Origin: Tubulanus polymorphus
Taxonomy: Eukaryota; Animalia; Nemertea
Length of the DNA: 64,000 nt
Direction of reading: 5' to 3'
NCBI RefSeq assembly: GCF_964204645.1
Contig: NC_134033.1
Coordinates: forward strand, 6,782,231 to 6,846,230
Position numbers and translations under genes: made by a program. The notes below the pieces were generated by a model. It was not told the origin of the DNA. It saw only the letters and a program-made list of their open reading frames with translations, and made no database searches. This document shows, one piece after another, positions 2,697 to 48,489 of the stretch. Numbering within the stretch: the stretch's first letter is position 1; each line of letters begins with the position of its first letter.

Positions 2697-2697
2697 T

Positions 2698-6592: not shown

Positions 6593-6599
6593 CGCTGTG

Positions 6600-16280: not shown

Positions 16281-16614
16281 GGGGCGGATACAGGGGGTCG
16301 CTCCTGCGGCACGTGCGAGTCAAGTCATCATAAATGATGACTTGAATAGCATTGACTACCTACCACCGCTCATTATTGTTGCAAAACTAAACGTTCGGCA
16401 CTGACTAAAAATTAGTAATAACATTTTAGAAATGGCCAGAATTTTAACTTAGGTTCTATCGCATTTTTATTTTACAATTGCGATTGATATAATTTTTTTT
16501 TAACGGCCGTTAAGGCTTCATGTTTCGTCTGCAATTCACTGCAAATAGTTACGCAACCACGCACATTTCAGCGTTTTTGGCAGCTGTACACTCAATCGGC
16601 ACCGTTCGTCACTA
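16279..16614 (+). mobile_element. DNA-transposon end fragment containing dispersed repeat copy 2
   Basis: Starts CAGGGGCGGATACAGGGGG (MITE-type TIR); 16329-16614 matches 7639-7923. Confidence 0.6.
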
Positions 16615-16624
16615 GATGCTGTAC

Positions 16625-17354
16625 AAATATCAAATGTTTTAAGAAAATTTCTTTTGGATGATAAACTAAAACCAGAAAAAATACAATTTGATGATGGAAA
16701 AGAATTTGATAATTCACTTGTTCATGAACTCTCAGATAAACATAATATTAAATATTTTTCAACAAAATCGGATAAAAAAGCAGCAGTTGTTGAACGATTT
16801 AATAGAACATTAAGAACAAGAATGTGGAAATATTTTACAGCAAATAATACTTTTAAATGGATTGATGTTTTACCAAAATTGATAGATGGTTATAATAATT
16901 TTTATCATTCTTCTATTGGAATGAAACCTATTGATGCTAGAAAACCTGAAAATGCTGAAATTGTTTGGAATAATTTATATGGAACATTTCTTGTAAATGA
17001 TTTTGTTGAACCTTAATTCAAAGTTGGTCAAAATGTTAGAATCTCTAAGTATAAAAAGATATTTGACAAAGGATACGATCGTAATTTTACTAGAGAAATA
17101 TATAAAATAAAAAAGGTAATAACATCAAAACCATATGTCTATAAATTAGAAGATTTAGATGGTGAAGAAGTTGATGGGTATTTTTATGAAGAAGAATTAA
17201 GTTTAACTACTGAAAATCTAGAACAAGAATACGAAATTGAAAAAGTATTAAAAACAAATACTGTTAATAGAAAAAATATTCTTTAGTAAATTGGGTTGGA
17301 TGGCCAGATAAATTCAATGAATGGATATTATCGAGTAAAATTAAAAATATATAA
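16625..17354 (+). pseudogene. Polinton RVE integrase C-half with chromodomain
   Basis: IQFDDGKEF, VVERFNRTL, YHSSIGMKP, FKVGQNVRISK, GYFYEEEL, chromo-like WVGWPDKFNEWI; stop at 17016. Confidence 0.9.
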
Positions 17355-17915
17355 ATGAATAAGGAATTATTTATATTTGAGCCTCATAATATGTTAATTT
17401 CTGGTGTAACAAATCGTGGAAAAACTTATTTCATATTAAATTTATTAGAAACTATTTATAAAAACTTTTTTGATAATATATTATTATTTTGTCCAACATA
17501 TTAATTTAATCAAAGTTATGATAGAAATATAACTAGAAATAATAAATTCATTGTATTAAATCCTAAAACAGTTAAAGAAAATTTAGATAATTGTATTAAA
17601 ATAGCAATTGATATTTATAAAGGATCAAATACATTATTCATTATAGATGATTGTGCAAATTTACATGATTCAAAAATTAGAGAGAGTGAATTATATTATT
17701 TAGCTTTCTCTGGAAGACATTTTGGGATAACAACATGGGTTTCAAATCAAAAATATAATTCAATTGTTAAAGATTTTAGAGAAAACATTAGATTTTTAGA
17801 AAATGATATTATTCCACATGATTTACACAATGAATATATGGATAAATTGAAAAATAATATAAGATCAAAGTTACTATTTCGATTACAACACCCATTTAAA
17901 TATGAATTTATTTAA
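17355..17915 (+). pseudogene. Polinton packaging ATPase copy (disrupted)
   Basis: MNKELFIFEPHNMLISGVTNRGKT, IIDDCANLHD, SGRHFG; homologous to 26782-27351. Confidence 0.85.
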
Positions 17916-18102
17916 ACTCAACTAGCTTGTTAATCTAGTATATTTTTAGTTACATTCTAGTTAAATTTTAGTTATTGGTAGTTGAAATAAAAACAACAAT
18001 ATTTCAACTAGCTTGTTAATCTAGTATATTTTTAGTTACATTCTAGTTAAATTCTAGTTTAATTCTAGTTGCAACAACACAACTAATTTGTTTCTTACAT
18101 AA

Positions 18103-18633
18103 ATGGGTGGTGAAAAGAAAATAAAATCTAAAAGTTGTGTTGTTCCAATTGAAAAAACTTTGGATGATTTAGGTATAACAGAAACAAAATTAGCGTCAGA
18201 TAATAATGGTGCTTTAAATGATATTACTACAAACAATAATTATGAATATTATCTTGATTGCAAACATCAATTAGAAATATTAATAGCATCTGGGAAATGT
18301 AAAAGTTTTATTAGTAAAAATCTAACTTATAATGAATTAGATACAATGAAATCGGATAAAATTATTAAATTATTTAAGATTTATGAAACTGCGAGAATAG
18401 CTAGAATTAATGATGCGATATCAGAATATGTAGTAAAAGGTTATAGTAAATTATGTAATTATATGCTGCCAATTCAAGATAAAAATAGATTATATTCCGA
18501 TTTAAAAAATGATTATTTAGTTATGACTGAATTAAATAAATGGATGGGATATTCATCATTTCAATTAGGTGGATTTATGACGCTTTTATCAACTGGAGTT
18601 ATAACATTTTCAAATATTGAAAGTAATAAATGA
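18103..18633 (+). CDS. Polinton hypothetical protein A
   Basis: 176-aa ORF homologous to 24860-25309 (LYSDLKNDYLVMTEL). Confidence 0.75.
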   Translation: MGGEKKIKSKSCVVPIEKTLDDLGITETKLASDNNGALNDITTNNNYEYYLDCKHQLEILIASGKCKSFISKNLTYNELDTMKSDKIIKLFKIYETARIARINDAISEYVVKGYSKLCNYMLPIQDKNRLYSDLKNDYLVMTELNKWMGYSSFQLGGFMTLLSTGVITFSNIESNK

Positions 18634-19748
18634 GCGAAGTGGAAGAGGTGAAAGAATTAACTGTGAAGAAAAAACCGAGAACTCAGAAACAAATCTAATG
18701 GTCTCGGCAATTAGGAATTAAATCACAGGAATATAAAAAAGCTGAAAAAGAACAAATAAGTTATAAAAATGTCAATAAAAATGTTAATAAAAATGGTGAA
18801 AATATTGTTATTTCTACTCCTTCTAATAATAGAACATTTGATAAATATCTATATTTTGCAACTGGATTTGTAATTGTTTTCATTTTGATTGGGTGTAGTT
18901 GGTATAAGAAATCAAATAAAATTTACGATATTAATAATTCTGAAACTACCGCTATTAAAAATAAAAATACTTCTGAAATTCCAAAATTCACGATAAAAAA
19001 ACGAATTAATATTTTAGAAAAAAAGCAAAAGAAATAATTTTATTTTAATTAATTGAATATTTCACTACTTTTGTCTATCTACGCGAAGCAATTGAATTGT
19101 TCAGATAAGTCATTTCGGATTCTTGATATTTAATTTATTTTTTTTAATTTTTTTATTTCTTAATTATTTAGTCAACAACTTCTAAATCACGATGCCCGTC
19201 TTCATTTTTTCCCATGGTTAATTATTTTAAATCCTTCTAATTCTATTAATTCCTCTGTACTCAATAAAACCCATTCATCAGGTAAAAATACTTTAAATTC
19301 TCGCGTTGTAGTAACATTACAGTAGCTTAGATTTGCTGTTACTTTCTCTCCATATTTAGGTTTTATCTTTTCTAATTTAAATATTTTGTGTTCAATTTCT
19401 TTTGTAACATCGACTAACTTTTTTATTTCAAATTATTTTTGTTGGTTTTATTCTGTTATTTATTGTTGCTAAGAATGCTTTTCTATCTCCCATTTATTAT
19501 GGGGAAAAATTACTTGTGGTGATAAGTGGTGTGTCTTATCTCGTACTCTGGTATGAAACCCCACTTTTACAATTACTAACACAAAACGAAGAAAGAACAA
19601 CCTGCGGGATCAGTGTAAATTACATGTTTCTCAGTGACATCAGCGACACCAGTGTAATAATCTGACACTACACAGTTTGCCTGAAGTCTTCAGCCCGATC
19701 AGTCGACTTTTGTCTGGTGAGCATTCCGTTTGTCAGTCATATTTCTTT

Positions 19749-22016: not shown

Positions 22017-22580
22017 AGTAATAGGGGTAATGGGCTTTCAAGCCAAAGGTCGAACGGTCGAGCTCATTAAAAAACAAAACATTAAAAGTAATTTAAAACT
22101 ATAATATATTTTCATAACCGTGTGCTTTTTATATTATAACTAAATATTTATTCTAAGATATTAATAATTTAAATTTTAAAAGCATATTGTATTAAATCAA
22201 TTGGTCGCTCCACTTCGCTACCGCTCCGCTCCGCGACCAATTGATTTATTTACAATACACAAATTCATATAATCAAATATATTTTAATAATAATAATTAT
22301 TCTATTATTCAACTGAAATACACACGGTTATGAAAATATATTATAGTTTTAAATTACTTTTAATGTTTTGTTTTTTAATTAACTTGACCATTCAACCTTT
22401 AACCTAAAAGCCCATTACCCCTATTACTCTTAAAATAATCATATACATGAATAACATTTAAATTGACAGATCATTCAATATAAAAGTATATATTTACAAC
22501 ATTATTTCAATATTCATATTTGTGTGAGTTAGATTTTTAAACATTAAAAGTGTTAGTAAAGTGTGATTGAAATAATGCAT
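22017..22580 (+). repeat. Left TIR including ~412-bp palindrome (22017-22428)
   Basis: AGTAATAGGGGTAATGGGC... pairs with ...GCCCATTACCCCTATTACT; apex TCAATTGGTCGC-24 nt-GCGACCAATTGA. Confidence 0.9.
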
Positions 22581-23309
22581 AGCTGTTTATACTAGAACAT
22601 GATTCTATTTGAGCCTATATACATTCCATGTAAAGAGCTATGGAATAAATCTATAAATTCACAGCTGTTACAGCTGTTTCTATGACGCCGAGACATATGA
22701 GACATATGCAAACGTGTAGAGAAAATTCTAGAAAGGTGTGCCGGAACCAGATGACGTGGCAGGAAATGAACAGGCGCTGTAACATTACGCTCAGGATATT
22801 ATATCTCTCGAAACGAAATTAGGAGTTTATAGTTTACAATTCTAAATCTAAATGTAAGTACTGTTTTTTGTAGTTATTAGGGCTATTAAATATGAAACCT
22901 TTAGATATATTTGAGTGTATTTAGTATATCTTTTAGATGGCTAGAGTTGCCGCTAATATCTTTTAGATTAATAAAACGCCATACGCATCAAGAAGTGATA
23001 GAGAAACTCAAGATACTCTTTCTGACTGAGGAATCAACAGCAATGGGGATATCGAACCAATAGAAATTAGCACAAGAAACACAAGAATCACCAAAAGATC
23101 GACGAAGAAACTATATAAGAATTTCAAAAACATTAAAACTCCAATGATTAAGTTTAACATTTGTTGATGTAGTTAAATATTTACCAGCAATTGAAAAAAT
23201 GTTTGTAATTATAAATTGTATTTATAGAAATCAAATGATGTATTGGAAGAAACGACTGAACAACTTGTATAATGTATTGTGTAAATCTGATTGGTGAATT
23301 TTTATGTTC

Positions 23310-23640
23310 AGTCGTTTCTATTATGATTAACGCATGCGCATTTAGCAAAACCGGCCATAAATGGCCGCATGTGACGCATGTAACGCATGTGACGAGGACA
23401 TGAATGCGTTTGAATTTTCTATGTTCAGTTGTTTCTATTTTACAGAATTTGCATAATGAATATATAATTATGATTAACGCATGCGCATTAAGCAAAACCG
23501 GCCATAAATGGCCGCATGTGACGCATGTAACGCATGTGTTGTTTCTATTTTACAGAATTTATAGAATGAATATATAATTATGATTAACACATGTGCATTA
23601 AGCAAAAGCGCGCCTGTATGTCCGCATGTGACGCGGGTAT
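23310..23640. repeat. Three imperfect direct repeats with internal dyads
   Basis: ATGATTAACGCATGCGCATTAAGCAAAACCGGCCATAAATGGCCGCATGTGACGC at ~23323, 23470, 23580. Confidence 0.8.
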
Positions 23641-23774
23641 TGTGACTGGTATGATTATCAAGGAATCGAAACAACTTATCAAAGCAGCGAGGAATGAAAA
23701 AGGATGACGTTGGTCGAAGAAATGGAAGAGGATTCTAAAATATTAACCAATTTAGTAAAAAATGCATATAATAA

Positions 23775-24453
23775 ATGGAACCAGAACTAACACAAATTAT
23801 CAATATTACAAATAACACTGGTGGTGTTATAAATATATATTACAAGAAGTGTTCTAAATGTGAATTAGATAAATTAGCTTTAACAGAATTTAGTAAGCGT
23901 AAGATTAGCAAAGATGGTTTTCAATATTGCTGTAAAACTTGTTTTAAACTATATACCAAACAATACCGAGAAGATAATATAGAACATTATAATTATTATA
24001 TGGCAGAATATATGAGAGAAAGATATCAAACAGATCTTAATTTTAGATTAAAACAATGTTTAAGATCTAGATTAACACAATTATTCAACAAAGAAACACA
24101 TTCAGAAACACTATCTAATTTATTGGGTTGTTCAGATGAATTTTTCATATCATGGATAATATATCAATTCGATGATAAAATGAATATAGATAACTATGGT
24201 GAATACTTTCATATTGATCATGTGTTGCCGATTTCTAAATTAAACATGAATGATGAATACAATAAAAAACTTATTTGGGGTTGGAAAAATTTAAGGCCTT
24301 TAGGAAAGAAAGAAAATCAAATCAAATCTAATATACTAGAATACAGTTATATTTAGAACAGTTAACAAAGGCAAAGAAATTTATTGATCAATGGAACAAT
24401 GATCCAAATAATGAACAATACGTTGAGGAATTTGATATCAAGGATCCGAAATG
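23775..24453 (+). CDS. HNH-type endonuclease with N-terminal CxxC-CxxC (NCLDV-like), probably frameshifted near C-terminus
   Basis: CSKC...KDG...CKTC, LRSRL, LLGCS, NYGEYFHIDHVLP, NLRPL...ENQIKSN. Confidence 0.75.
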
Positions 24454-24689
24454 ACTTAGCTGGACAGTTATAATTACTGCTCCTAATAGATAGACAATAG
24501 TAGTGAGATATCAAATAGAATTTAAAATAAAATGTAATAAAAAAACAATAACTTCAACTAGCCATTATTTCTATTTTAATTTTTGATATTTTCTTTTACA
24601 ATTTTTTTCAAAAGAGAATACTTTATATTTTAAATAGATTCAAATAGAAATTCTTTAAATTCAAATAGCTAGTATCAGTAGTCAATCTA

Positions 24690-25309
24690 AATAATCAGTC
24701 AATCAGTAAGAAATCTAAAAAGAATGGTATTGATATTGAAAAAACATTAGATGATTTGGGTATAAGTGATAATAAAGATACAGTTGTAACTAATTGTGCT
24801 CAAGTTAATTGTAATATAGATTATGAAACTATTTATATTGTAAGCATCATCTAGAACTATTGATTGCCGCTGGAAAAACTAAGGAGTTTTTAAATAGAAT
24901 CATTACTTTTCAAGAACTAGACTCTATGAAACCAGATGAAGTAATAAAATATTTTAAGATTTATGAAGAGGCAAGATTAGCTAGAATAAATGATTCTATT
25001 TCAGATGGTATTGTCAAATGTTATTCTAAGTTATGTAACCAGTTAATACCAATTGATGATGAAAATAAATTATATAGTGATTTGAAAAATGACTATTTAG
25101 TTATGACTGAATTACAAAAATGGGTTGGTTATGATTCATTTCAATTAGGATCGGTTATGACATTAATTTCTACTGGTGTCATAACATTTTCGAACATCAA
25201 GCATATGGAATATAAATCAGGCAAGAACGAAACAGATGACGCTGTACTACAACCAAACAGCGAAACAGAAAATGAATCAGAACAAAAATTAACTAAAATA
25301 AATGAGTGA
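24690..25309 (+). pseudogene. Polinton hypothetical protein A (5' disrupted)
   Basis: Homologous to 18103-18633 (IEKTLDDLGI, KHHLELLIA). Confidence 0.75.
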
Positions 25310-25670
25310 TAGCGTTAAGAAAAAGCCTTGATCCGAGAAACAAATTAAATGGGCAAGAGAATTAGGTAAAAGATCTGCAGAATTAAAAAAAGCAAAGAAA
25401 AAGAAATTAACTGATATAAATGAATCACAGACTTTATCTGATATTGATTCAAATAATAATCCATCTGATTCTTCTAATGCTGGAAGTAATTATAAATTAT
25501 ATATTACAATTGGATTAGTAACGGTTATTATATTATCCGGCGTAATATATATATCAAAATTCAAATCTGATGATAAAGATGATTCCAATGACAATGAACC
25601 TATCATACCAGAAAATAAGTCAAATCCTAAAACCATTGAAAATAACCCAAGATTATTATTAATGGATTAA
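25302..25670 (+). pseudogene. Polinton hypothetical protein B with TM segment
   Basis: KKP*SEKQIKWARELG homologous to 18630-19030; hydrophobic LYITIGLVTVIILSGVIYI. Confidence 0.6.
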
Positions 25671-25676
25671 AAGAAG

Positions 25677-26781
25677 ATGAAAAAAGAACAATATTTAAGA
25701 GATTTATATTATAACCCAGAAAGTGAAGTATCATATTCTAACGTTTCAGAATTATGGAATAAAATTAAATCTGATAATGAAAATGGTGCCGTACGGCACC
25801 CACACGGTGATATAAAATATAGTGAATTAAAATCATGGTTACAAAATCAACCAACATATCAAATCCACAAGAAAATGGATAAAACTTATTTAACAAGAAA
25901 AGTAATGTTTTCATATATCGATCAACAATGGCAAGCAGATTTAATTGATATGAAGAACTTAGAGGAATACAACAAAGGATATTTCTGGATATTAAATGTT
26001 ATAGACATATTCAGTAGATACGCATGGTCAATTCCAATCAAAAATAAAACTGGTATAGAAGTAACAAATGCTTTTAAATCTATATTTAAAGAAGCTATTC
26101 CAGATAAGATACAATTTGATGAAGGTAAAGAATTTTATAACAAACATTTAAAAAAAACTATTATCCGATAACGATGTAGACTATTTTTCAACACACTCAG
26201 ATAAAAAAGCATCTATTATAGAAAGATTTAATAAAACATTGAAAACTAGAATGTGGAAATATTTTACTGCTAATGAAACATATAAATATATCGATGTATT
26301 AGATGATTTAGTGAAAGGTTATAATAATTCTAAACATAGTTCTATAAATATGAAACCTATACAAGCTAGAAAAGAAGATAATTCGGAAATAGTTTGGAAT
26401 AATTTATATGGAGCATTTGTTACACATGATTTCGGAGAACCTAAATTTAAAATTGGACAACACGTAAGAATATCTAAATATAGAAAAACCTTTTATAAAG
26501 GTTATACCCCAAATTTGTACAGAAGAAATATTCAAGATTAAAAAGATAATATTAACTAAACCATTCGTTTATAAATTAGAAATCTAAAAAATGGAGAAAT
26601 ATTAGGTTATTTCTATGAACAAGAATTATCACTTGTACCAAATCCAGAGGAAATAGAATACAAAATAGAAAAGTATTGAAAACAAATACTCTTAAAGGAA
26701 AAAAGTATTCTTTGGTGAAATATAAAGGATACGATGATAAATTTAATGAATGGATTTTATCTAGTAAAATTAAAAGAATAA
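25677..26781 (+). pseudogene. Polinton RVE integrase with chromodomain (frameshifted)
   Basis: LYYNP, WQADL, IDIFSRYAW, QFDEGKEF, IERFNKTLK (D-D-E), KHSSINMKP, KYKGYDDKFNEWI. Confidence 0.92.
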
Positions 26782-27370
26782 ATGAATAAAGATTTATTTA
26801 TATTTGAACCGCATAATATGTTAGTTACTGGTGTAACCAATTGTGGTAAAACACATTTCATATTAGATTTGTTAGAAACTATTTATAAGAATCATTTTGA
26901 TAATGTAATATTATTCTGCCCTACTTATGAAATGAATAAAACATATAATAGAGATATAGTTAAGATAAAAAAGTTTATTATATTAAATCCTAAAACAGTA
27001 AAAGAAAATTTAGATAATTGTATAAAAATAGCACTTGATACTTATAAAGGATCAAATACATTATTCATTGTAGATGATTGCGCAAATTTACATGATTCAA
27101 AAGTGAGAGAAAGTGAGTTATGTTATCTAGCTTTCTCTGGAAGACATTTCGGGATAACAACAAGGGTTTTAAATCAAAAATATAATTCAATTGTTAAAGA
27201 CTTTAGGGAGAATATAAGATTTCTAGTTTTATTCTACAATAAAGATAGAAAATCTATGCAACAATCATTGGAAGAAAATCAAATTATACCTACTGAATTA
27301 CATGATGAATATATGTTCAAAATTATTACTGAGATTACAATTTCCCTATGAATATAAATTTATAAAATAA
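26782..27370 (+). CDS. A32/FtsK-like packaging ATPase (C-terminal lesion)
   Basis: Walker A GVTNCGKT, Walker B IVDD, SGRH, LNQ...FRENI. Confidence 0.9.
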
Positions 27371-27877
27371 CTATCTATATATCTATCTAATACGTATTAA
27401 ATACGTATTAAATACGTATTAAATACATTAATACTTAAAACCCCCTTTTTTAAATGAATATTATTCATACAATTTTCAACCAATTTATTTTTATTTTTTC
27501 AACTAATATATGAATAAGTTTGAAAATAAATATTCCTGAAGATGACTATTAGGATATAGTCGAAATAAACTACTATCTCGAAGTTTCATTTTCGGACTTT
27601 TTATTATCATTGTGGGATTCTCTCCTCATCGCGTCAACACGGATATTGTGTTCTACCTATCGTGATTTGAAAATAATAAAGGTTATTTATTACTACTGAG
27701 GTTTCAATATAAATTTAAAAAAGAAATATAATTTAAGGTATTTTCAAATAATATGTATTAGATATGTATTAGATACCCTATTAGATGCCTTAAATACTTA
27801 AAACCCCTTTTTTATTTACTATTATTTTATACAATTTACAACTAATATAATTATTTGAGTTAAATATAATTAATATC

Positions 27878-28738
27878 TTAATCACTTTCATCATCACTCT
27901 CCAATTCACTATCAGACCCTAACAATTTATTCAAATTCTCTACCGAATTTTCTTCTTCAAATTCTCTATTTTTTTTATACTTATTTTTCACCTTTTTTAC
28001 CGCATCATCAATAGTTGTTTCATTGTTATGCTTATTCATCCAATCAAATTTATCATTATTTTCTACTTTATGTTTCATAGAATCTTTATAAGTGTTTGCT
28101 ACTAATATTTCATTTACAGTGTTTGATCCTAATATTTCATTAGCATCGGTTAGATCTAATTCATCTTTATTAGGTGTTGCTAATAATAAATCTTCATATA
28201 TTTTTTCACCATTTAATTTTTGATTTGGAACAAACTTTGAAACATATCTAAATGGGTGTTCTATAAATTCTTTTAAACCAACACGTTCTATAACATTATT
28301 TATATGTACCCTTGTATTCATATGTTTATTCCAATTTGATGTAGCGTTTGAAAATTCACTTTTACAATATCCACAATAATTTCTATTTTCACTAACATTT
28401 AATATTATTTCATTATTAGATGTAGAGGGTATTACATTATTAGATGTAGAAGGTATTACATTATTAGATGTAGTAGGTATTACATTATTAGATGTAGAAG
28501 CTATTACATTATAAGATGTAGAAGGTATTACATTATTAGATGTAGAAGGTATTAAATTACTTAAATTATCAACAACTTCACTTTTATTATTATCGATTTC
28601 TATTAGTTTAGTTTTATAAATTTTGAAAATAGGATCAAATATCAAAGCTATATTACAAGGTATTACATAATATAAACCATCATTATTTTCATGTGTATCG
28701 ATGTATGGAATATGTTTATATACTTTACCTCCTTCCAT
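27878..28738 (-). CDS. Hypothetical protein with IPSTSNNV repeats and C2H2-type zinc finger
   Basis: Intact 286-aa ORF; six 8-aa repeats; CGYC...HMNTRVH. Confidence 0.7.
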   Translation of the reverse strand: MEGGKVYKHIPYIDTHENNDGLYYVIPCNIALIFDPIFKIYKTKLIEIDNNKSEVVDNLSNLIPSTSNNVIPSTSYNVIASTSNNVIPTTSNNVIPSTSNNVIPSTSNNEIILNVSENRNYCGYCKSEFSNATSNWNKHMNTRVHINNVIERVGLKEFIEHPFRYVSKFVPNQKLNGEKIYEDLLLATPNKDELDLTDANEILGSNTVNEILVANTYKDSMKHKVENNDKFDWMNKHNNETTIDDAVKKVKNKYKKNREFEEENSVENLNKLLGSDSELESDDESD

Positions 28739-28770
28739 TTATTATACATATTTTTATTAAAGTTAAAATT

Positions 28771-30018
28771 TTAATACATAACACTATTCAATTGAGAATT
28801 TACAATATTTAATTGCGCGTCAGATATAATATAAATGTGCATTTTGAAATTTTTGATTCCTTTATTCTTTGTCATGAATAATTGTATTCCATCTTTAGTG
28901 TTTTGTAATTTTTTTCCAGAACCATGTAATGAATTATCCTCTGTTGTTCTAAAATCTAACCATAATGCATATTTATTACCGGTATAATAATCAATTTGAT
29001 TAATGTTACAATTTTCAGATGATTTTACGTTTTCATTCATAAAATGTTTTCTAATTTCTGGCCATTGATCAATCATTCTCATTCCTTGGCAAAATATTTT
29101 ATTTGCTATTCCTTCGATAGTTATTTCTTCTTTAGTTATTTCAGGATTATAATAATTATCAACATTTATTGCGCCATTAGTATATGTTGCAATGGTAAAA
29201 ATATTAATATACCTTTAATAGATCTTCTTGGGAAGTTAATATTCTCATTAATTATTTCATCATTTGCATTAATAGTTACGGTTTTAAATGTATCAATATA
29301 ATCATATAATAATGAAAATCCTTGATTGTATTGAGTTTGAATTATACTTGAAATATTTTCATCAGTTACTGTGTCTTATTCTAAACATATATTCGATAAT
29401 TTATAACTCATATCTTTATTAACGCTAGATATTTCAATTTCATTAAGAGGAGCAAATGTTATTTCGAATATAACGTATTCTTGAATTGCGTATTTATATA
29501 AAGGTGCATTGTTATTTATCAATTCAAAGTCTAATGGAATTTTATATTTGCTTCCATATATACTTTTTATCAATTTATCTACAGCATTAGTTAATATTGC
29601 GCTATTAGCTTCTGATCTTAATTCATTTTGGTTTTCTGATTGGATGCCTTGAAATATCATATTATTTCTATTTTTCTTTAGTTAACCATAAATCTTTATA
29701 ATGCATAAATCAATTATAATCATCTAATGAGAAAACTGTTTCTGGACCAATCTTTATAGTTAATTTTTTAATCAAATATCTTCCAACATTATCAACAACA
29801 TAATTATCATTATTACCGATTACTTTTATATCGGCAGATAAATAAATACTATTTGGAACGTAAAAAGTATTTTGTGTTAATCGAGGAATTCTAACATATA
29901 AAGTTTCATCGGGATTGATATTAGAAGGGTTATGAGTAATTATATGATGTGATCTTTCTGCTTTAATAGCATTAGATATTCTATGATTCTTAGAAGGATT
30001 GATATAACTCCCACTCAT
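28771..30018 (-). pseudogene. Major capsid protein (double jelly-roll, Polinton type)
   Basis: ITHNPSNINPDETLYVRIP, NVGRYLIKK, KIPLDFEL, LSNICLE, ALWLDFRT...LHGSG, DAQLNI; ~415 codons; assignment from recalled Polinton motifs. Confidence 0.75.
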
Positions 30019-31448
30019 TTATTTGACAAAAAAATTAATTATTTATTTTTTAACATATTCACTAACCCAAAAATAATAGCACTTACAACTGTAATTAAAA
30101 ATAAAATAATATGTTCAGCAGCAAAGTTAAGAATATTCCCAGCAGATTTCAATATTAAACCAACAATTGACGCAATAACTCCGGGTAAAGCTGCAGCAGA
30201 TTTTTTAGATAGTTCCCATAAATATTTTGCTAATTTCTTTAAACCATCCTTAACTTTATCTTGTATAGAATTATTATCATTCGGGGTTTATCCGGTTTAT
30301 TGGGAGTAGGAGTAGATTTCAGTGAATTTGATATAGCTAAACCTATTGTCGTAAATACCATAGTTACTGCTGTTAGAATTGAAAGAATTGTGATTCCTTC
30401 AAACTTAAATAATAATTTTATTCTATCTTTCAATAATATTTCAGAATTTGGTTTAATTATTAAATCTTTAACAACAACTTTTAATCTATTAATACAATAA
30501 TTATATGATTTTTTTAATAATTTAATTTCTTCTTTCTGAAATTCTATGTTATATTCTAAATTATCAATTTCTTTTCTAAATATGCATTTCTTTTTTTAAA
30601 TTCAATTTCTTCATTAACTTTATTATCTCTATCTAATTTTAATTGTTCTGATTCTTTTCTTGATTTAAATAATTCATATTCTAATTTTAAAATCTCTTAT
30701 ACTTTTATCATGCGCAAATTTATCAGCTTTATTTTGTATACTAATAATTTCTCTAATTGCTTTATCAGAAAATATATTTAAATCTTCTAATTCTTGTTTT
30801 GTTGCATCAAGTAATCCATTTGGTAAAAGTTTTTCAGTTTGAACTCCTCTTGAATTAGGTTTACTAGTTTTGGAAGTTATATTCTGTTCAGAAGTTGTTT
30901 CTGTTTCTAAATTATTATCGATTGTTTCAAATAATTCATTAATTCTTTGTTTAAATACTCTTTCATTTTTAATAATTTCTTCTTGTGTTACATCTTCTAT
31001 TTCATTACTATTTCTTATTCTTTTAATTCTAGATAGGTCTAACTTAAGCAAAGTTGATTCTGCTAATATAATAATCATCTTTCAAATGATAATAATATTC
31101 ACCATCTAAAGATTTTACTTCTTGTACTAAAAGTCTGGCGCCTCTGGCATTTATATTATATCCAGATTTTTCAAATATAGGTTTGGAATTATAAATATAT
31201 TCATTATATTCTAAATTTTGTTTTACTAAATCTGGATTTTCATTTTCAGGATTTAATCTCGATCTAGTTCTTCTATCAAATTCATCTGTTGATTGGCCTT
31301 TAGAACCACTATCTGCTAAATTAGAATTATATGCTGATTCATTACCATCATCAATATTAGTTTCTGCATCATTATAATCATCATCAATATATCCTTCATT
31401 ATTATTTCCCATACCTTCCATTTCATAATCTTCTCCACCTTCTGCCAT
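30019..31448 (-). pseudogene. Acidic/coiled-coil protein with C-terminal hydrophobic helices
   Basis: Fragments 31044-31448, 30674-31078, 30239-30433, ending AAALPGVIASIVGLIL...AEHIILFLITVV. Confidence 0.65.
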
Positions 31449-31463
31449 TTACATAATAAAAAA

Positions 31464-31701
31464 TCAAAATTTAAAATATAATATTCCTCCGATTACAATT
31501 CCTATACAGGTTAAAGCTAATTTAGTATTTTCATGGGATTTATTATCATCATTTAGTTTAATTATTTCATGTTGAATATTATCAGTTTTTATATCTTCTG
31601 ATGTATTGTAATCTTTTATTTTAGAATCATTATTTAATTTAATATTATTAGTTTTAGTTTCTGTTGATTGAATGTGTTTTTTATTTTTTTTCACCTTCCA
31701 T
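31464..31701 (-). CDS. Small protein with C-terminal TM segment
   Basis: LALTCIGIVIGGILYFKF; start region ambiguous. Confidence 0.5.
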
Positions 31702-32763
31702 TAGTTTTGGAGCAGTAATTATCTTTTATTTATATCATTTAATCCAAATGAATTATTTATTGTTGCAGTTTTAATTAGATTATTATAACCAATTATGTTT
31801 CCCATCTTTAATACTAAATCATTAGAAATAATTAATAGATTAGGGCCTATACAATAATTTAATCTAATATGTGATTTATCTAAATAATTTTGATATCTTA
31901 CAATGTTTTCCGGAATCGATCTATTTTTATCATTATGAATTGAATCTTCAAATAATACTTTAAACTGTTTCTGCGCATCGAATGAAGTGTTATCATTTCC
32001 AGTTATTGGTTATCTTGTTTCAACTGGCGCACCTAAAATACATATCAAATAAGTTCTAATAGATTGATTTATTCTTTGTATTCCAGCTTAAGTAAAACTT
32101 TCACTATTTTCTAAAATGAAATTAACCCAACCATTATTATTATCAATTTTATAATTATGATAAGCTGAAATTCTATGCATATAATCAATTCTTTTTAATT
32201 CAAACTCTTCACCAACACCTTGCAATTTACCATGCGCTCTAAAATCGGAATTAATATTTATATTAAATTCATTACATATTTTATAAAACTTAGATAGATT
32301 AATATTATTATCCAATTCTTTAAAATATTTAGACCCGGGTAAAGGACATTCTAATACATTTAATATTATTCTGATTTGAAAATATGTGTGAAATCTAAAT
32401 ACTGTGAGAATTAATTTTAAATCAGAATACTTCAAATTTTTATCTAAGTTATTGAAATGATCATTCCAACTTATTCCACATCCTGTTGTTGCACAATAAA
32501 CAGCAAAATCTAATTGGTTCTGCCATTATTTCATATTAGATTTTACTTTATATATATGATATTCATCTCGAGTAAAAGTAACTTCATATGTATTAAATAT
32601 ATTTTCCATTTTAGAAATAAAAAACTGTGATTCAGTAACATAAATTTCTAAATTAGTTAATGAATTTAAAACTACATTTTTATATGTAATATTTTTCTTA
32701 AAATCTATTGCAGGAATATTATATTTAATTGATTTATTATATTGGAAAGCTTTTGAACCCCAT
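31700..32763 (-). pseudogene. Conserved Polinton hypothetical protein
   Basis: WQNQLDFAVYCATTGCGISW, VFRFHTYFQIR...CPLPG, AGIQRINQSIRTY, DAQKQF; several stops. Confidence 0.7.
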
Positions 32764-32779
32764 TTATATAATTAAAAAA

Positions 32780-33214
32780 TCAATAATTAACTAATTCTTT
32801 TAATAATTTATCTTGTTCTTCAACTGTTATATGACCATTTAAACTTATTATATAATCTAGTGTATTCTTTAATTTATTAATTTCTTTTATATTAGTTTTA
32901 ATTTTTTCTTTATTACTTTTTATATTTAATTTTGAACTTATACCAGTTAAAACACTTGAACTTAATCCTAATACACCAATTGATATAGCTAAAGGTGTTA
33001 ATGGACTGAATATTGCTAGAAATGTTATTACAGAACTAATTGTAACCGAACCACTTATAATAAAATAATATATAATTTTAGATTTTAAATATTTTTTCTT
33101 TTTAACTTTTAAGTCACTTTCAAATTCTAATATTTGTTTTTCTAAATATGTTTTTAATTTAGTTTTATTTATATCATGAGGAATAATATCAATATTATCA
33201 ACTTTATCTTCCAT
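32780..33214 (-). CDS. Two-TM hypothetical protein
   Basis: Intact 144-aa ORF with two adjacent hydrophobic helices flanked by Lys-rich segments. Confidence 0.7.
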   Translation of the reverse strand: MEDKVDNIDIIPHDINKTKLKTYLEKQILEFESDLKVKKKKYLKSKIIYYFIISGSVTISSVITFLAIFSPLTPLAISIGVLGLSSSVLTGISSKLNIKSNKEKIKTNIKEINKLKNTLDYIISLNGHITVEEQDKLLKELVNY

Positions 33215-33234
33215 TTATTTAGCAAAAAAAATTA

Positions 33235-33657
33235 CTAATTAGTAAACTTATGAGCAACAAATATAACAATAACAATTCCACCTAAAATCCATATTATTTC
33301 ATATTTCTGTTGTTCTTTACTTGGGGTATAATAATCTGATAAATTAGGTTTGTATAGATGTAATTTTTCTTTATTTGTTACTGCGTTATATAAACTCATT
33401 GCATCATCAACTGATTGAAAATCTCTATGTGAAATCTTCTGATCATATAGTTCTTTATTGATGTAATCCATATAGTTTTGTCGTTTTTCTCTATATTCTT
33501 CCGTTGCTTTATTATATTTCTCTAATGCTAAGTTATGTCTTTTTTGTTCTGTTAATGATCCATTTTTATCAATATGTTTAAATAAATATCCACCACCAGT
33601 AAATGCTAAAGCGTTAACAATTGCCGATCCTATAATAGTTATAACTGCAGAAGCCAT
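33235..33657 (-). CDS. Conserved Polinton protein with hydrophobic N-terminus and C-terminal TM
   Basis: IVNALAFTGGGYLF...EQKRHNLALE...LSDYYTPS motif set. Confidence 0.75.
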   Translation of the reverse strand: MASAVITIIGSAIVNALAFTGGGYLFKHIDKNGSLTEQKRHNLALEKYNKATEEYREKRQNYMDYINKELYDQKISHRDFQSVDDAMSLYNAVTNKEKLHLYKPNLSDYYTPSKEQQKYEIIWILGGIVIVIFVAHKFTN

Positions 33658-33681
33658 TTATTTAGTAAAATGATTATGCAT

Positions 33682-33897
33682 TTATATGGGAGGAATATAT
33701 TTTTGTTTTTCCAAATAATCAATAGTTAAATTAGATAAAGTAACCGCTAATGTTAATTTCAAAATATCATTTATATCAAATCTATCAACATTAACACTTC
33801 CCATTTTAAATACTTTTTTTAATACCATTGAATCACCAACAGTTCCAAGTAATGCGCCATTATATAATCCAGTTATTATCCACTTATTATCACTCAT
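33682..33897 (-). CDS. Small hydrophobic Polinton protein
   Basis: 71 aa, GLYNGALL...DILKL...DYLEKQKYIP. Confidence 0.65.
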   Translation of the reverse strand: MSDNKWIITGLYNGALLGTVGDSMVLKKVFKMGSVNVDRFDINDILKLTLAVTLSNLTIDYLEKQKYIPPI

Positions 33898-34254
33898 TTA
33901 TTTATCAAAAAAATTACTATCATCAAAATATTTAGTTATCTTATTTATGATTAATTCAACATTTATTTCATTACTAGTTTCATTTGTATATATTTCAATT
34001 ATTATTTTTTTAATATCATCGATGATAAAATCTTCATCTAATTCATAAAATCTTAAAGATTCTCTAATTAAATTAGTAATCTTTTCTACATTTAAAGTTT
34101 CTTTATCTATTGTTGTTTCATACTCAAATGTTTTTTCATTAGAAAATGTAATATTTTTGATATGTGTAATTACATCATTAACGTTAAATTTCATTTCTTT
34201 CTCATGTTTAAAATCAAACCCAAAACATATACTCGGCCCAACAGTTATATTCAT
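33898..34254 (-). CDS. Hypothetical protein
   Basis: 118-aa ORF with TAAATG start; its stop abuts the next start. Confidence 0.6.
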   Translation of the reverse strand: MNITVGPSICFGFDFKHEKEMKFNVNDVITHIKNITFSNEKTFEYETTIDKETLNVEKITNLIRESLRFYELDEDFIIDDIKKIIIEIYTNETSNEINVELIINKITKYFDDSNFFDK

Positions 34255-34270
34255 TTATATAGTGAAAAAA

Positions 34271-35025
34271 TTACTCTTTACATCTTATAACTAATTCATA
34301 TATCACAGGAAAGTTATTCAAATCAATTAAATAACCATTATGATTTCTTATTTCTAATTTAAAATTATTGAAATGTGGAATACAAGGTTTGAAATCACAT
34401 TCAGTTAAATTATAATTTATTTGAGTTCCAAATTGTTTAACATTTTTAGCGGTAAAATATTTAGTATACTAGAACTACAAATTGTTTCTTTAGTTGCTTC
34501 AAAAGTTTTTGTAGGCTCGATTAAATTGCAATAAATATAAAAGTGTGTAAAAGGTATTATATTTGAGCTGCCTTCTGCGTTTCCAGTAACTGTGGGCGGT
34601 TTAATTCCTAACATTTTAGCCAGTGGTTTGTTTACCATAAATTTATGTTGTTCATTAGATATCTTTATTCTTATTTTATTAGTACTATCAATTTTATTAA
34701 ATTTAATTTCAAATACAGAAGTGCCCCCGATTTTCAACCGAGCTCTTCTATTAATTTCCTGCGCTAATGATTCTAAATTATATAATCCTGGTTTCAAAAA
34801 TATATGAAACCATTTATCTTTATTTCTCATATAAATCATAAACCCTCTATGTTCAAAAGTTTTATCTGATATATTATGAAAAGAATTACATAAACTTATA
34901 TTTACTTATATTAAATCTACACAATTCTTAAATTCTCTATCTAATTGTACTAGTAAATTATGAGATTTATAATTTGTAAGTTTTCTAGAATCAACAAATA
35001 TTCTGTATTCTTTTAATTCCACCAT
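34271..35025 (-). pseudogene. Minor capsid (penton-like) protein, frameshifted
   Basis: PGLYNLESL, LAKMLGI, YIYCNLI, C-terminal FKLEIRNHNGYLIDLNNFPVIYEL. Confidence 0.7.
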
Positions 35026-35042
35026 TTATTTTACATATTTTC

Positions 35043-35396
35043 TTATTCGAAATCTATTTCATGGTGCCCTTTTTCATTCTTACCTTTGTATACGAAATAG
35101 AAATCTCCAGAACATAATTCTTCTAAATCTTCACTTGATAATCTATGAAATCTATCCGGTAAATATGTTCTGAATTTATATGTATTTCCTTTTAATCCTT
35201 CATATTCTAAGTGTATAACAAATTTATCTCCATAGTTATTAGTAATTGTATCAATATTTGTAATTAGATATTTCGTATGGATTGTTAATTCTGTTAACTT
35301 TTTGAATTTATAATCTACAGATTTTACATTTGTGATATCTTTAATTCTATCTAGAAATAATTTGTTGTTCTCACTGTGTGTTTGTTTACTCTCCAT
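35043..35396 (-). CDS. Hypothetical protein
   Basis: 117 aa; FKKLTEL...NYGDK...YLPDRF...GKNEKGH; homolog at 19150-19493. Confidence 0.7.
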   Translation of the reverse strand: MESKQTHSENNKLFLDRIKDITNVKSVDYKFKKLTELTIHTKYLITNIDTITNNYGDKFVIHLEYEGLKGNTYKFRTYLPDRFHRLSSEDLEELCSGDFYFVYKGKNEKGHHEIDFE

Positions 35397-35425
35397 TTAT
35401 AATACATATTTTTATTAAAATTTGA

Positions 35426-38400
35426 TTAACACGTTAGAATTCTTTTCATTATCTCGTTCTCTTTTGTTTCTTCTCTTTTAAATTTTAAGTATTCATCTAA
35501 ATTGCAACCATAAGCAACTGTATGAATTCCATCATCCAGAATATATCTTTTATCATCAAATGGGTTTAGACTTATCTTTTCAATTTCTTCAATAAACATT
35601 TCATGATCTTCAGATCTTAAACATCTCATCTTATGTTTTCTAACTTCTTCATTGAATAGACAATTGATGTAATCTTTGAAATGAATATTCTTTTCTACTA
35701 CATTTTTGGATATTCCTTTTAACTTTTTAGATTCATGTTCTTTAGTTTTATATCGATCTAATACCAATGAATTCAATCATTTCTTCACCGCCTAATTCAT
35801 TTTTGAATTTACCGGGAACTTTTTATTATCATTGCTAAACAATTCATGATCTTTAGGATAGTTACTGAAATCAAAATGATGTTTTAATGTTTTTAAATCA
35901 TCAGTTATGTTATCAGTTTTTATCTTCAATATGTAACTGTCAGTATCAAAATATAATATTTTTATATGTTTTTCTCCAAAAAGTGGTTGTAATACATTAT
36001 AATAGAATTCATACATTAGTAATTTTGATAATTCTAAAACTGAAGCGCCAACATAGATTGGTTTATTAAATTTCATTGATTTTCTTCTCATCTTAACTGC
36101 AGCTAAATTTTCATCAAATATTCTGTTACCAATGAACTTAGGATATGATTGTAAATGTCTAATTCTTTTACCATTACTAACTAACTCAATATCATTTCTA
36201 TTACTAATATTTTCACAAGTCTTACCATAGAATGCATTATTCATTAACTTGAAGAAATCTTTCTCGAAATCAGTTTTAGCTTCAGTTCTCTGTTTGGTGT
36301 TAAAATCTATATATTTTTCTAACCACTTAGATTGACTGAATGAAATATATCTATGTACTTTTTTTAGAACCATTCCTTGTTTTAGATAAAACTTTAACAT
36401 TCTATAATGTACTACATAATTATATTTATCTTCTTGAGTTACCATTAACTTTTCTGTATGAATAAGATTTTCGGGTTTAATTCTTTTTTGATAATTTGAT
36501 AATTCTTCATGAGTAACGGTTTTATGTTCTGGACAGTATGCTAGATTTCTAGATTTAAATTTAATATGTTCAGGATATTCTAAATCTACAACAAAGAAGT
36601 AACCAGTATCTGAATCATCTGCAATATCTAGAATTCTTTTCTTCCAATCAAATTTATCATTATTTTCATTCTGTAAAACTTCACTTATTTCAAATACTCC
36701 ATAAGGTTGTGGTTCCATCATTGCCCAACCATACAAATTATTTGCATCTATATATAATAACTTATATCCAGGGTTATCATTTACATTGAAATATCTATCA
36801 CCTAATACACCTGAAACTCCTCCTCTTATAGATTTTTCAAATGATAATAATTGATCTATATTTGTTAACAAATCCATTTTTATATCTGTAAATTTTAATC
36901 CACAATCCCATGTTAAACCTGGTGATGAATAACAATGACATAGATCAATATTGAAATATTTTAGGTTTACATCTCTAAACCTTTCGAATATATCGGTTAA
37001 TAATAATACATCTGATTTTAAATATAAATCTACTAATTGCCCATGATTTTCTATTTTGAAATGATTCCAAATATTCAATGTTCTATTATATACTTCATCT
37101 TTAACATATTCATTTTTTAATTCATCATAAAATTGTTCTTTTAATAATTCAGTTATATTGAAATCATTATGTGATTTATAAAATGAATATGGAATTGCTC
37201 CTTTATATCTCATTAATTGAAAATCATCATTATTTGGATAGTGTTGTTTTAATATTTTTAATTCATCATCAACTAATGATTTTGATAAGTTATCTAATGA
37301 ACTATTTAAAAATCTATATGAATCTATAAATCTTAGGCAACCAAATTGGAATGATATATAATTCTCAGATGTTTTAGCTAACATTCTAAATTTATAAGTT
37401 GGTATTTTATCTTTTGATCTATTTGAATTTAATCTCTCTATTTCATTATTGATTTCTTCTATTTTATGGCATAACTGTTTGATGAATTAATGTGCATCAT
37501 ATCCTGATAGATTATGAAATATAACTGGTACAAAGTTAATTTTCTTAGCTTGTAAGTTACAATTCGCATGTGCAGCGCCTCTAAACTTTCCATTCAAATG
37601 ATCATGGTCTCTTACTTTTTTATCTTTATAATTAAATATCTTTTCACAATAATAACATTTATCTGCAAACGCAAATTCTTCTTTATCTTCTTCTGTCATT
37701 ATAATTTATATATTTGTATTCAATAATTTACTAAATCTTATTTCATATTCAATTAATAAGTCACAAAAATGATTGATAACATTTTCATTTCTATAATCAT
37801 AATATTCACTTTCAATTAGTTCTGGATAATCAGATTTAATATATAACCCGAAAGCTGCAGCTGATCGATGAATCTTTTTAATAGTATTTGTTATTGGTGC
37901 TTCTTCTGAAAAATCATTTTCATTAAAATTTAATTTCTTTCTTTTATAATATATTTCTTTTCTATCTTGATCGGTTAATTCTTTATTTAATGATTCAAAA
38001 TCTCCATATATAAGAAATGGAACTTTATTTTTGTAATCATATTTTTTGAATTCTAATATTTTATCTTTTTCATTTGGTAAAACTAATTTACAATAATCAT
38101 GATTTTCACATAATTGTTTATGATTTAATAATGTACTTTCATTACTGAATCTATGTAAAAATTTTCTACAAAGATATATTTTATGGTGATCATTTTCTGA
38201 TTTAAAAAATAAATCGATTTGTTTAATCCACATATAATGATTTTCATAATATAGTATATCTATAACATCGTTTGAATCATAATTTTTTGATAGATATAAA
38301 GGTTCTAATGTATAATGTTTTATGTTGTTACCTTTTGTATTTGGTAATTTGATTAAATCAAATACATTTATTCTTAAATTATTATCTCTTTCTATTTTTG

Positions 38401-39454
38401 GGATGTTTTTAATTATAACAGGATACTTATCTATCTTATAATTATTTTCAAATTGTTTATAATGAGTTAATCTAAAACTATGTTGTTTATAATCTTCAAC
38501 TGGGTGTAAACAACTTATTATAGCCCATAGAAAACATTTATCATCTTCATTTTGTACATTTATTACAGCATTAGTTTTAAATGGTAGTTTAATATAACTC
38601 GATGCTTTAATATCTGGTTCTTTATAATATGATACATTATTTTCATCGATTGGTTTTGATTTAGTTAACTAATTATATTTTGTGTTATAAACATGTAAAG
38701 TCATAAATATTATTTCATCAAATATTAAACCAGATCCTTCAAAATATATCTCTTCTATTTTAGTTTTTACTTCATTATAACATTTATCTAATTTATCATT
38801 TATATGTTGTTTTGAAATAATATGTTGTGAATGAGAATTTATATTATATATTGGTTTATCTTCAGATTTTATGAATTTAACTTTAGAAGATATACTTATT
38901 TTAGGATATTCAACATCAGTTATTATTTTTATTATTTCTTTCATATTTTCTAAATGTTTTTTATTTTCTTCTAATGTTTTTCATTTATGAAATTTGAACT
39001 CGATAGCTGCTGGGCCAATATCACTTTTAAATGCTTCGGTTATCTCTATATCTTTTTTATTATCTAATGAATTAATATATTTTCTTACATCTTCCATGTA
39101 TGGTCTTTTATTGTTTAGATTATTTTTTATGCTTTTAATTGTCTTCTGTTTCTTATCATTATCTTTATCAAAATAATCTTCACCTAAAATATCATTATTC
39201 TTATTTCTAATATGACTTTTAGATTTTAAATGTTCATTATAATATCTTTTATCACTGAATGATTGATTACATGTATCACATTTGTATGTTTCTTTTTCAT
39301 TCTTTAATTCATCTAATTTAGATTCTAATATATCATCTTTATATTCTAGTTTCAATTTATTCTCTAAATGTGTTTTAGTTTTATTGTGTCTTGCTTTTTG
39401 GGATTTATCTATATTGATATTACATGTTGGGCAGTAGTACTTATTTGCTTCCAT
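35426..39454 (-). pseudogene. Protein-primed DNA polymerase B (intein-free), frameshifted
   Basis: N-terminal zinc fingers, YGDFES (ExoI), EndoVII-like CYYC...DHDH...AHANCN, FHNLSGYD, DSYRFL, YIDANNLYGWAM, KLMNNAFYGK, YFDTDS, FDDKR. Confidence 0.95.
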
Positions 39455-39508
39455 TTTAATACAAAATTTTTTATTAAAATTGATTTTAGAAGTTCAATGA
39501 TTTATATC

Positions 39509-39893
39509 ATGCATTATTTCAATCACACTTTACTAACACTTTTAATGTTTAAAAATCTAACTCACACAAATATGAATATTGAAATAATGTTGTAAATATA
39601 TACTTTTATATTGAATAATCTGTCAATTTAAATGTTATTTATGTATATGATTATTTTAAGAGTAATAGGGGTAATGGGCTTTCAGGTTAAAGGTTGAATG
39701 GTCGAGTTCATTAAAAAACAAAACATTAAAAAGTAATTTAAAACTATAATATATTTTCATAACCATGTGTATTTCAGTTGAATAATAGAATGATTATTAT
39801 TATTAAAATATATTTGATTATATGAATTTGTGTATTGTAAATAAATCAATTGGTCGCGGAGCGGAGCGGTAGCGAAGTGGAGCGACCAATTGA
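39509..39893 (-). repeat. Right TIR, truncated at hairpin apex
   Basis: Reverse complement of 22197-22580 with few mismatches. Confidence 0.9.
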
Positions 39894-40813: not shown

Positions 40814-41674
40814 GTAAGTCTTTTTCCTGGATTCTTTAAGCCCAACACCACCAATAAAAATGCACAAAGCATCATAATAGTGGTATTGCGTGCGCTCTCT
40901 ATATTTTTAATTACTCTCTACATCTTATAACTAATTCATAAATTAAAGGAAGGTTATTCAAATCAATTAAATAACCATTATGATTTCTTATTTTCTTAAT
41001 TTTTAAATTATTGAAATGTGGAATACAAGGTTTAAAATCCGATTCAGCTAAATTATAATTTATTTGAGTTCCAAATTGTTAAACATTTTTTAATGGTAAA
41101 ATAGTTAATAAACCAGAATTACAAATTGTATCGTTAGTTGCTTCAAATGTTTTTGTAGGATCAATTAAATTGCAATAAATATAAAAGTGTGTAAAAGGCA
41201 TTATATTTGAATTAGCGTCTACGTTTCCTGTAACAGTTTGTGGTTTAATTCCTAACAGTTAAGCCAAAGGTTTTCTTACCATAAATGCATGTTTGCTTTC
41301 ATCATCTAACTTTATTTTAATTTTATCAGAACTATTTACAGATTCTTTTGACTTTCAAAAACTGTAGTTTATGATCGACATCTCGCATTTTAAATGCGTA
41401 CAAATGTGCCAAAGTGACACAGTGGGGCACCACCACATGCCATAAGGTAAGCAGTTTTAAGTAATTTTTCATGGGCATCCATGCCTGCAGCCGGGGGGGG
41501 AGTTGTACGTGCAATTGCGTTCTGTAATGCTTAATGTATATGATAAAATGGCCGATTTTGCGTACAGAGGGGGAGGGGGGTTGGAAAATTCAAATTTTAT
41601 GCGTACGTAATAAATGAATGATCTCTAACCGATAGTTCAATTGTAGAATCAAAGAAACTTACAAGTACAAAAGA

Positions 41675-42422
41675 ATGAAATATGAGAAAACGTGTCCAGA
41701 TAATAAAGAAACACTTGAAAAGTTGGAAAAACAATATAATGAATTAGCAAGAAAAACATATTATTGTAAATATTGTAAATTGATTATCTATATAAGTAAT
41801 TCAAATCTACATAATAGAACAATAAAAAATAAAGAAAACGTAAGTAAATACCAAGAACTTAATGAAGATCTATTGCCAAGATATGATAGAAAAAAATGCC
41901 CACAATGTATTTATGAGTACTTAAGACAAGAAAATTCTGTGATATTTTCTAATGAATTTGGATGGCAAAGAAATTTATGGGGTAATAAAAAAACTAGAGA
42001 TATTCTTATAGAACCAAAATTAAAATATCTAGATGAAATGTTTAAGATATTTTCTATGGAATATCATACACCAGAAAATAAGCAATGGATTGAAAAAAAA
42101 ACCTAAAGTAACAAAAGAAGATATAAGAAATATAAAAGAAACGTTCACAAACATATTAAAATATCATGTGGATAATAACATAACAGATTCAATTAATTAT
42201 GAATTCTGTTTAAATAAGATTGTACATTTTTTAAACATCGATATTATAATTCCGTTTGATGAATTAACGAACAGAAAGAAACAAAGAGAGCTAGATGAAG
42301 TGTGGAATAACATAGAACTTTATTTAAATGAGAAAAATGAAATGGAAGAACCTAAACAATTAAATAAAAATGAAGAAACCAGTAGTGATGTAGAGTATGA
42401 TGATCTTGATTTTATGTTTTAA
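41675..42422 (+). pseudogene. VLTF3-like (poxvirus A2 family) late transcription factor, frameshift in A-run ~42095
   Basis: CKYC and CPQC motifs; C-terminal SINYEFCLNKI...KKQRELDEVWNNIELYL resembles the VLTF3 C-terminal pattern (recalled, not searched). Confidence 0.5.
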
Positions 42423-45043: not shown

Positions 45044-45133
45044 TTTATTACTTTTTGATGTTTTATTTCTTTTTGTATTATAAACATATAGTATATATTT
45101 TGTATTATAAGATGTATCTGTTTTTCAATTCAG

Positions 45134-48300: not shown

Positions 48301-48489
48301 AGATATGAAATGTTGTTTTCAGTATATACGTGATATGATTTGGTCTCAGACAAGATTTCTCATTTGCGATGAAAAACTATGACCGTCCATTTGTGTTATA
48401 AATCGAATCGCAACAAAACAAATTCAAAGTTTTAAATATGAATGAAACATACTTTTAGACAAACAAAAACCAAATCAAATCGTAAGAAT

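Follow-up and report, generated by a model that had tools for sequence, protein, structure and literature searches.

Maverick/Polinton elements (Polintoviricetes), among them the adintoviruses, are described as elements of 15-20 kb with terminal inverted repeats, a DNA polymerase B of the protein-primed type (pPolB), a retroviral-type integrase (rve), an A32-like packaging ATPase and a double jelly-roll capsid protein (PMC8502044, accessible text). The same hallmarks, with the capsid assigned by a predicted fold, are present in a decayed Polinton of the nemertean Tubulanus polymorphus, which is located in a 64,000-nucleotide stretch of contig NC_134033.1 (positions 6,782,231 to 6,846,230 of the forward strand; in the following the window). 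We analyzed the hexamer TAAATG, which covers the start codon at nearly all genes of this element. Together with an upstream T element it forms a real, two-part and lineage-wide start signal, which we read as a putative poxvirus-type promoter.

Integrating, capsid-coding elements with pPolB, an rve integrase and a late promoter motif on their genes are already known from mavirus and the endogenous mavirus-like elements, and virophages have late promoters in common with their helper (PMC10945749, as far as accessible). For mavirus the helper is proven and the host is a protist, whereas the Tubulanus element has a poxvirus-like motif, a probable animal host and a putative helper. Membership in the virophages as a taxon (Virophaviricetes) is not indicated, as no protease was matched and the capsids of mavirus and Sputnik rank below those of iridovirus and Paramecium bursaria chlorella virus 1 (PBCV-1) in a fold search. 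Polinton-like viruses associated with entomopoxviruses have been proposed as poxvirus hyperparasites; compared by description only, they differ by their discovery in occlusion bodies, a cysteine protease and two pPolB-bearing members without detectable integrase (PMC11296320, in part).

On the promoter side, according to the accessible sections of two vaccinia sources, the TAAAT of late promoters overlaps the start codon, G usually follows it and a T ten bases upstream is conserved (PMC11980589); intermediate promoters have TAAA and, upstream, a region rich in A/T (PMC11980589; also PMC5294985). The element shares with them the TAAAT(G) over the start codon, the upstream T element, purine- or T-rich flanks and an A-rich TAAA(A) variant; it differs in that its T peak lies one base further upstream, its carrier has no RNA polymerase gene and its function is predicted. 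The yeast elements pGKL1/2 also replicate with a pPolB, and a poxvirus-related polymerase reads their TAAAN initiator, but they use an upstream ATNTGA element and encode their own polymerase on pGKL2 (PMC6211774, in part). The word promoter does not occur in the accessible text of PMC8502044, PMC11131425 and bioRxiv 2026.06.19.733378, where pox-type promoters and helper dependence are not mentioned either, and that of Barth et al. (PMC11296320) contains no promoter analysis and uses neither promoter nor transcription. No report of TAAATG promoters in Polintons was found in the literature searched; a prior remark could be missed, because subscription papers and supplements lay outside this search.

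The start signal in the window

A first-pass annotation had listed TAAATG at 17 gene starts, and all 17 read TAA directly followed by ATG (13 in the main element, four in a neighbouring fragment). It had set apart the integrase (25677, AAAGAAG before ATG) and pPolB (39454, TATTAAA before ATG), which indeed lack the exact hexamer, pPolB having the one-base-longer TAAAATG. The enrichment that it suggested to check was clear: 13 of 15 scorable starts of the main element carry the motif, whereas of the 702 remaining ATGs on both strands of its interior 43 do so (6.1%, Fisher p 9e-14). The count omits a sixteenth gene (around 24669-25309), whose start the window copy does not preserve. The starts and genes are as follows.

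22017..39893: Polinton/Maverick element, 17.9 kb, about 24% GC, with terminal inverted repeats, Pfam matches to rve, Pox_A32 and DNA_pol_B_2, and fragmented open reading frames (ORFs)
23772..23777, plus strand: TAAATG start of an HNH-like gene, AAAT at -15..-12; weak HNH match (E 0.006) in relative L005
25299..25304, plus strand: TAAATG start; the gene is small, has a hydrophobic stretch and lies within the 3' end of the upstream gene
25677..26789, plus strand: retroviral-type integrase (broken), Pfam PF00665 (rve), E 8e-8, above cut-off; exact TAAATG absent
26779..27351, plus strand: A32-like packaging ATPase with TAAATG start, Pfam PF04665, E 1e-11
28736..28741, minus strand: TAAATG start whose upstream core is A-rich, as it is in homologues L002 and L005
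28771..30021, minus strand: major capsid protein gene (broken), T-tract and TAAATG start at 30018; pieces 67-83% identical to intact relatives
31446..31451, minus strand: T-tract and TAAATG start
32761..32766, minus strand: T-tract and TAAATG start
33212..33217, minus strand: T-tract and TAAATG start; weak SLATT-like match, E 0.0025
33655..33660, minus strand: TAAATG start with T at -13 and -12
33895..33900, minus strand: T-tract and TAAATG start; sole case in the window in which TAA is the stop of the upstream gene
34252..34257, minus strand: T-tract and TAAATG start
35023..35028, minus strand: TAAATG start with A-rich core, possible minor capsid gene (unconfirmed candidate)
35394..35399, minus strand: TAAATG start with A-rich core
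35426..39458, minus strand: pPolB (broken), Pfam PF03175, E 6e-15; TAAAATG start with A-rich core

The annotation had cautioned that coupling of a stop to the next start might explain the motif at 26782, 30018 and 33897. This holds for 33897 only, as the upstream frame runs to 26789 in the first case and ends at 30039 in the second, and without the coupled start the enrichment persists (12 of 14, p 1e-12). T-runs upstream of several starts were also confirmed: T-tracts are present at six window starts including the one of the major capsid gene, and T occupies -14 in 6 of the 13. The starts at 23775, 26782, 28738, 35025 and 35396 as well as pPolB carry AAAT at -15..-12 and tentatively resemble the vaccinia intermediate type. 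A clean division into early, intermediate and late genes by function did not emerge, since A-rich cores are common to the homologues for two genes only and the ATPase homologues are mostly T-rich.

Conservation among metagenome relatives

A scan with an ATPase alignment yielded 79 related metagenome loci, most of them at 40-81% identity; no relatives were found by IMG/VR scans or in a phage collection. From 295 ORFs of conserved families we kept the 273 that begin near the family N-terminus; the 22 excluded ORFs start inside the conserved core, and TAA precedes none of them. TAAATG was found at 185 of 234 non-redundant homologous starts, compared with 117 of 2575 out-of-frame ATGs (4.5%) of the same genes, and it is present at 12 of 16 integrase homologues. 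The distribution per locus is nearly all-or-none: among 43 loci with at least three starts, 33 have the motif at 75% or more of them, four have none and six lie between. Outside nine TAAATG-free loci the count is 185 of 208, or 165 of 185 without the gene that starts in ATPase codons, and TAAA lies within ten bases of the ATG at 198 of these 208 starts. The signal also persists in GC-richer loci (GC at least 37%; 39 of 40 starts versus 70 of 1323 ATGs).

When the 185 TAAATG starts of the relatives were aligned on the ATG, a second element became visible, with T at -14, -13 and -12 in 87, 72 and 75% and A at -16 in 59%. T at -14 occurs in 161 of the 185 starts and in 110 of 291 TAAATG sites (38%) of the same loci that are not starts (p 7e-28); T reaches 36-38% at each of the three positions in this control. 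G or C never occupies -14 at the 185 starts, compared with 27% of the non-start sites. Counted from the T of TAAAT, the T peak covers the 9th to 11th base upstream. The match of this two-part signal to the architecture of vaccinia late promoters is well supported. The annotation had claimed a promoter of the vaccinia late type, and the conserved signal bears out such an architecture; transcription by a poxvirus-like polymerase is what we infer from it.

Genes in head-to-head orientation provide further evidence. Both starts carry TAAATG in 33 of 35 such pairs. In 21 pairs the second start falls in conserved ATPase codons, and these pairs are therefore not independent, but in pairs without an overlapping ATPase gene the motif is found on both sides in 12 of 13. 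The ATGs of three pairs are only 4-6 bases apart, and in four others, with spacers of 14-15 bases, each motif is the T-tract of the other. Such an arrangement is what overlapping promoters of the initiator type would give, and scanning translation of ordinary RNA polymerase II mRNAs can hardly be reconciled with it. In L013, L014 and L015 the opposite-strand integrase and ATPase ATGs, 4-6 bases apart, are arranged around a palindromic CATTTAAATG or CATTTATAAATG. Accessory genes seem to use the promoter too, as a deoxynucleoside kinase (E 2e-31) at 10343-10981 of the close relative L001 starts with a T-tract and TAAATG.

The nine TAAATG-free loci belong to two sister subclades and have the hexamer at none of their 26 starts; instead, 22 of the 26 have TATA at most 12 bases from the ATG. 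The background frequencies are clearly lower, with 8 of 10 starts versus 24 of 404 sites (6%) in L022 and 14 of 16 versus 90 of 603 (15%) in the other TATA-type loci. In an ATPase tree of 58 rows, which gave long-branch warnings for L078 and L039, the TAAATG label requires 3 changes compared with 13.4 after shuffling, and its absence 2 compared with 7.7. TATA near the ATG resembles the late initiator of African swine fever virus (ASFV), which is described as TATA (PMC7163114, in part). Differing promoter motifs of mavirus-like elements have been read as differing helpers, and only the type with the motif of Cafeteria roenbergensis virus (CroV) responds to CroV (PMC10945749, accessible text). 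By analogy, the motif switch between the sister clades may reflect a change of helper. L022, a TATA-type locus of 49% GC, codes at 2448-2858 and 6543-7049 for a homologue of Bcl-2 (E 2e-18) and for a protein with weak likeness to VLTF3.

Gene content, ends and surroundings

Stops or frameshifts break most genes of the 17.9-kb element, and the copy is therefore a fossil. The capsid protein of L001 is predicted to be a double jelly roll (pLDDT 84, Foldseek E 4e-16), and via this fold and the identity of the pieces the gene starting at 30018 is assigned as the double jelly-roll major capsid protein. For the minor capsid candidate the model of a relative is beta-rich with low confidence (pLDDT 40). 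No protease was matched by Pfam among the scanned window pieces or the relatives, and hence no adenovirus-type maturation protease as in Group 1 Maverick-Polintons; Rfam gave no match. Pfam matched no RNA polymerase subunit in the 234 proteins or protein pieces scanned from window and related loci, in a scan of mostly partial loci that left out some members of the five largest families and the near-duplicate loci L023 and L028. A VLTF3-like Pfam match is also absent from the main element, and the one in L022 is weak (E 6e-4, below cut-off).

The terminal repeats and the two further Polinton fragments of the window are:

22017..22580: left terminal repeat, beginning with AGTAATAG
39509..39893: right terminal repeat, lacking its outer ~180 bp; 96% complementarity with 22197-22580
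16600..19520: fragment 1, part of a related Polinton, in which TAAATG occurs at 17355, 18103 and 18630 (plus strand) and 19493 (minus strand)
40880..45130: fragment 3, partial Polinton with a pPolB containing an intein-like insert and a piece of a VLTF3-like gene

No target-site duplication was seen around the terminal inverted repeats, and the right end of the element is truncated. The first 412 nucleotides of the left end (22017-22428) form an imperfect fold-back hairpin with 78% of the bases paired, an AT-rich stem and a GC-rich tip, which may be a replication origin; the right repeat ends at the tip of this hairpin. A 110-base duplication that contains CGCATGTGA repeats (23300-23640) separates the left terminal repeat from the first gene. 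In the gap between the convergent genes (27389-27860), CCCCTTTTTT and tandem repeats of 11 bases occur in two blocks that resemble each other and are possible terminators.

In fragment 3, the intein-like insert in pPolB (42795-44099) has a LAGLIDADG match (E 6e-5). The VLTF3-like piece at 42033-42422 (plus strand; Pfam PF04947, E 6e-7, above cut-off) is part of a broken gene (41614-42422) that converges on pPolB and for which the TAAATG at 41614 is a candidate start; longer homologues of the piece were not found. The surroundings comprise pieces of reverse transcriptase and RNase H from a long terminal repeat-type retroelement (1205-2697, minus strand), an exon of a host major-facilitator transporter (46805-47644) and a satellite with units of 118-119 bases and a higher-order period near 3.3 kb (48450-64000).

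Candidate polymerases for the start signal

We consider it probable (roughly 0.6) that the T-tract and TAAATG of this decayed Polinton represent a poxvirus-type post-replicative promoter, for which a co-infecting helper virus would supply the RNA polymerase. Such a promoter would imply a virophage-like life, and by analogy to the virophages helper dependence seems likely. As in vaccinia, transcription would start at the first A of TAAAT, and slippage of the polymerase would put a poly(A) leader in front of the AUG; slippage on TAAAT with this result is described for vaccinia (PMC6211774, in part). Such a leader would account for the expression of genes that have T at -3 and lack space for a 5' untranslated region (UTR). 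Free copies would replicate via their own pPolB and be packaged into their own capsid in or near the cytoplasmic factory of the helper, and the integrase would occasionally insert a copy into host chromosomes, where it would stay silent and decay like the one in the window.

Several points weigh against this interpretation. By the wording of the review, the T of vaccinia would be one base closer to the start than the T peak at -14, and 7 of the 13 starts in the window have no T there. Because the loci are related to one another, their counts overstate the independent evidence, and the TATA-type group of nine loci was defined after the data were seen. Avoidance of the poxvirus early terminator was tested with a negative result: TTTTTNT occurs 56 times versus 91 expected, a depletion that is non-specific because it does not exceed that of other T-runs (TTTTTNV, 162 versus 233). 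No helper virus sequence was identified, transcription start and poly(A) leader are inferred from the vaccinia analogy, and the proposal does not explain how a cytoplasmic helper would wake an integrated copy. In view of the VLTF3-like genes of fragment 3 and L022, transcription directed by the element itself is conceivable. Finally, the motif does not single out a poxvirus, because the yeast cytoplasmic elements also use TAAAN initiators (PMC6211774, in part).

The last point, together with the lack of an identified helper, leads to another cytoplasmic polymerase of viral type, either from a different large DNA virus (for example an egovirus or an unknown lineage of Pokkesviricetes) or from a pGKL2-like element with a poxvirus-derived polymerase. 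Initiation at TAAAN with slippage is described for the yeast virus-like elements (PMC6211774), and close poxvirus relatives exist whose promoters are undescribed in 10.1101/2024.03.23.586382 (both sources in part). This explanation is unlikely, since the upstream T position and the layout of TAAATG over the start are a specific match to vaccinia late promoters, the late motifs published for ASFV and CroV are unlike that of the element, and no ATNTGA-like peak appeared in the base table of -30..-1, in which variable spacing was not searched. To our knowledge, pGKL1/2 carry neither capsid nor integrase. We regard it as quite unlikely that the element is autonomous and nuclear, with host RNA polymerase II and an element factor such as the VLTF3-like protein starting at the motif and the pox likeness being due to shared ancestry or convergence. 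The integrase implies a nuclear stage, VLTF3-like genes are found in fragment 3 and weakly in L022 and are already known from coral polintoviruses (PMC11131425, in part), and adintovirus transcripts and virion-associated DNA have been reported without a named helper (PMC8502044, accessible text). But divergent ATGs 4-15 bases apart leave no space for ordinary 5' UTRs, and the main element has no VLTF3-like match. Furthermore, by the Kozak rule T at -3 is a poor start context, except in an mRNA that has the A run at its 5' end. Nor do the coding strands avoid the nuclear poly(A) signal AATAAA (324 versus 317 expected, with 12 copies in the pPolB of the window), which is weakly consistent with cytoplasmic transcription.

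That TAAATG is merely translational or compositional, arising from coupling of stop and start, an in-frame stop that insulates, overlap with a poly(A) signal or AT richness, is highly improbable. Coupling occurs at 33897, and 20 of the 185 TAAs in the relatives close an upstream in-frame stretch of at least 50 codons; AATAAA or ATTAAA is formed at 82 of the 185 starts, and in 21 loci one start lies within conserved ATPase codons. However, TAA is replaced by another stop at only 3 of 208 starts (TGA in two, TAG in one), most exceptions still have TAAA, displaced by some bases (it is found within ten bases at 198 of the 208), and 103 of the 185 starts form neither poly(A) hexamer. The motif persists in head-to-head pairs and at 37-45% GC, and the T element at -14 is not predicted by any of these causes, which are thus largely excluded as main explanations. 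Within the coding strands, TAAATG is neither depleted nor enriched (109 versus 105). A trans-splice acceptor was rejected on inspection, as AA and not AG precedes the ATG.

A promoter matched to a helper makes the idea of helper dependence directly testable. If the poxvirus-type reading is correct, it would extend the virophage lifestyle to integrated elements of animals and would explain the usual silence of such elements. More tentatively, and with somewhat less than even confidence, a large branch of integrating animal Polintons may be virophages of Pokkesviricetes, with most subclades wired to pox-type late initiators and the sister subclades to asfar-type TATA. Through this wiring, the motifs would predict undiscovered pox-like and asfar-like viruses in the hosts, and the elements would possibly form an inherited antiviral system of animals. 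Promoter motifs in genomes would then be a pointer to unknown large DNA viruses.

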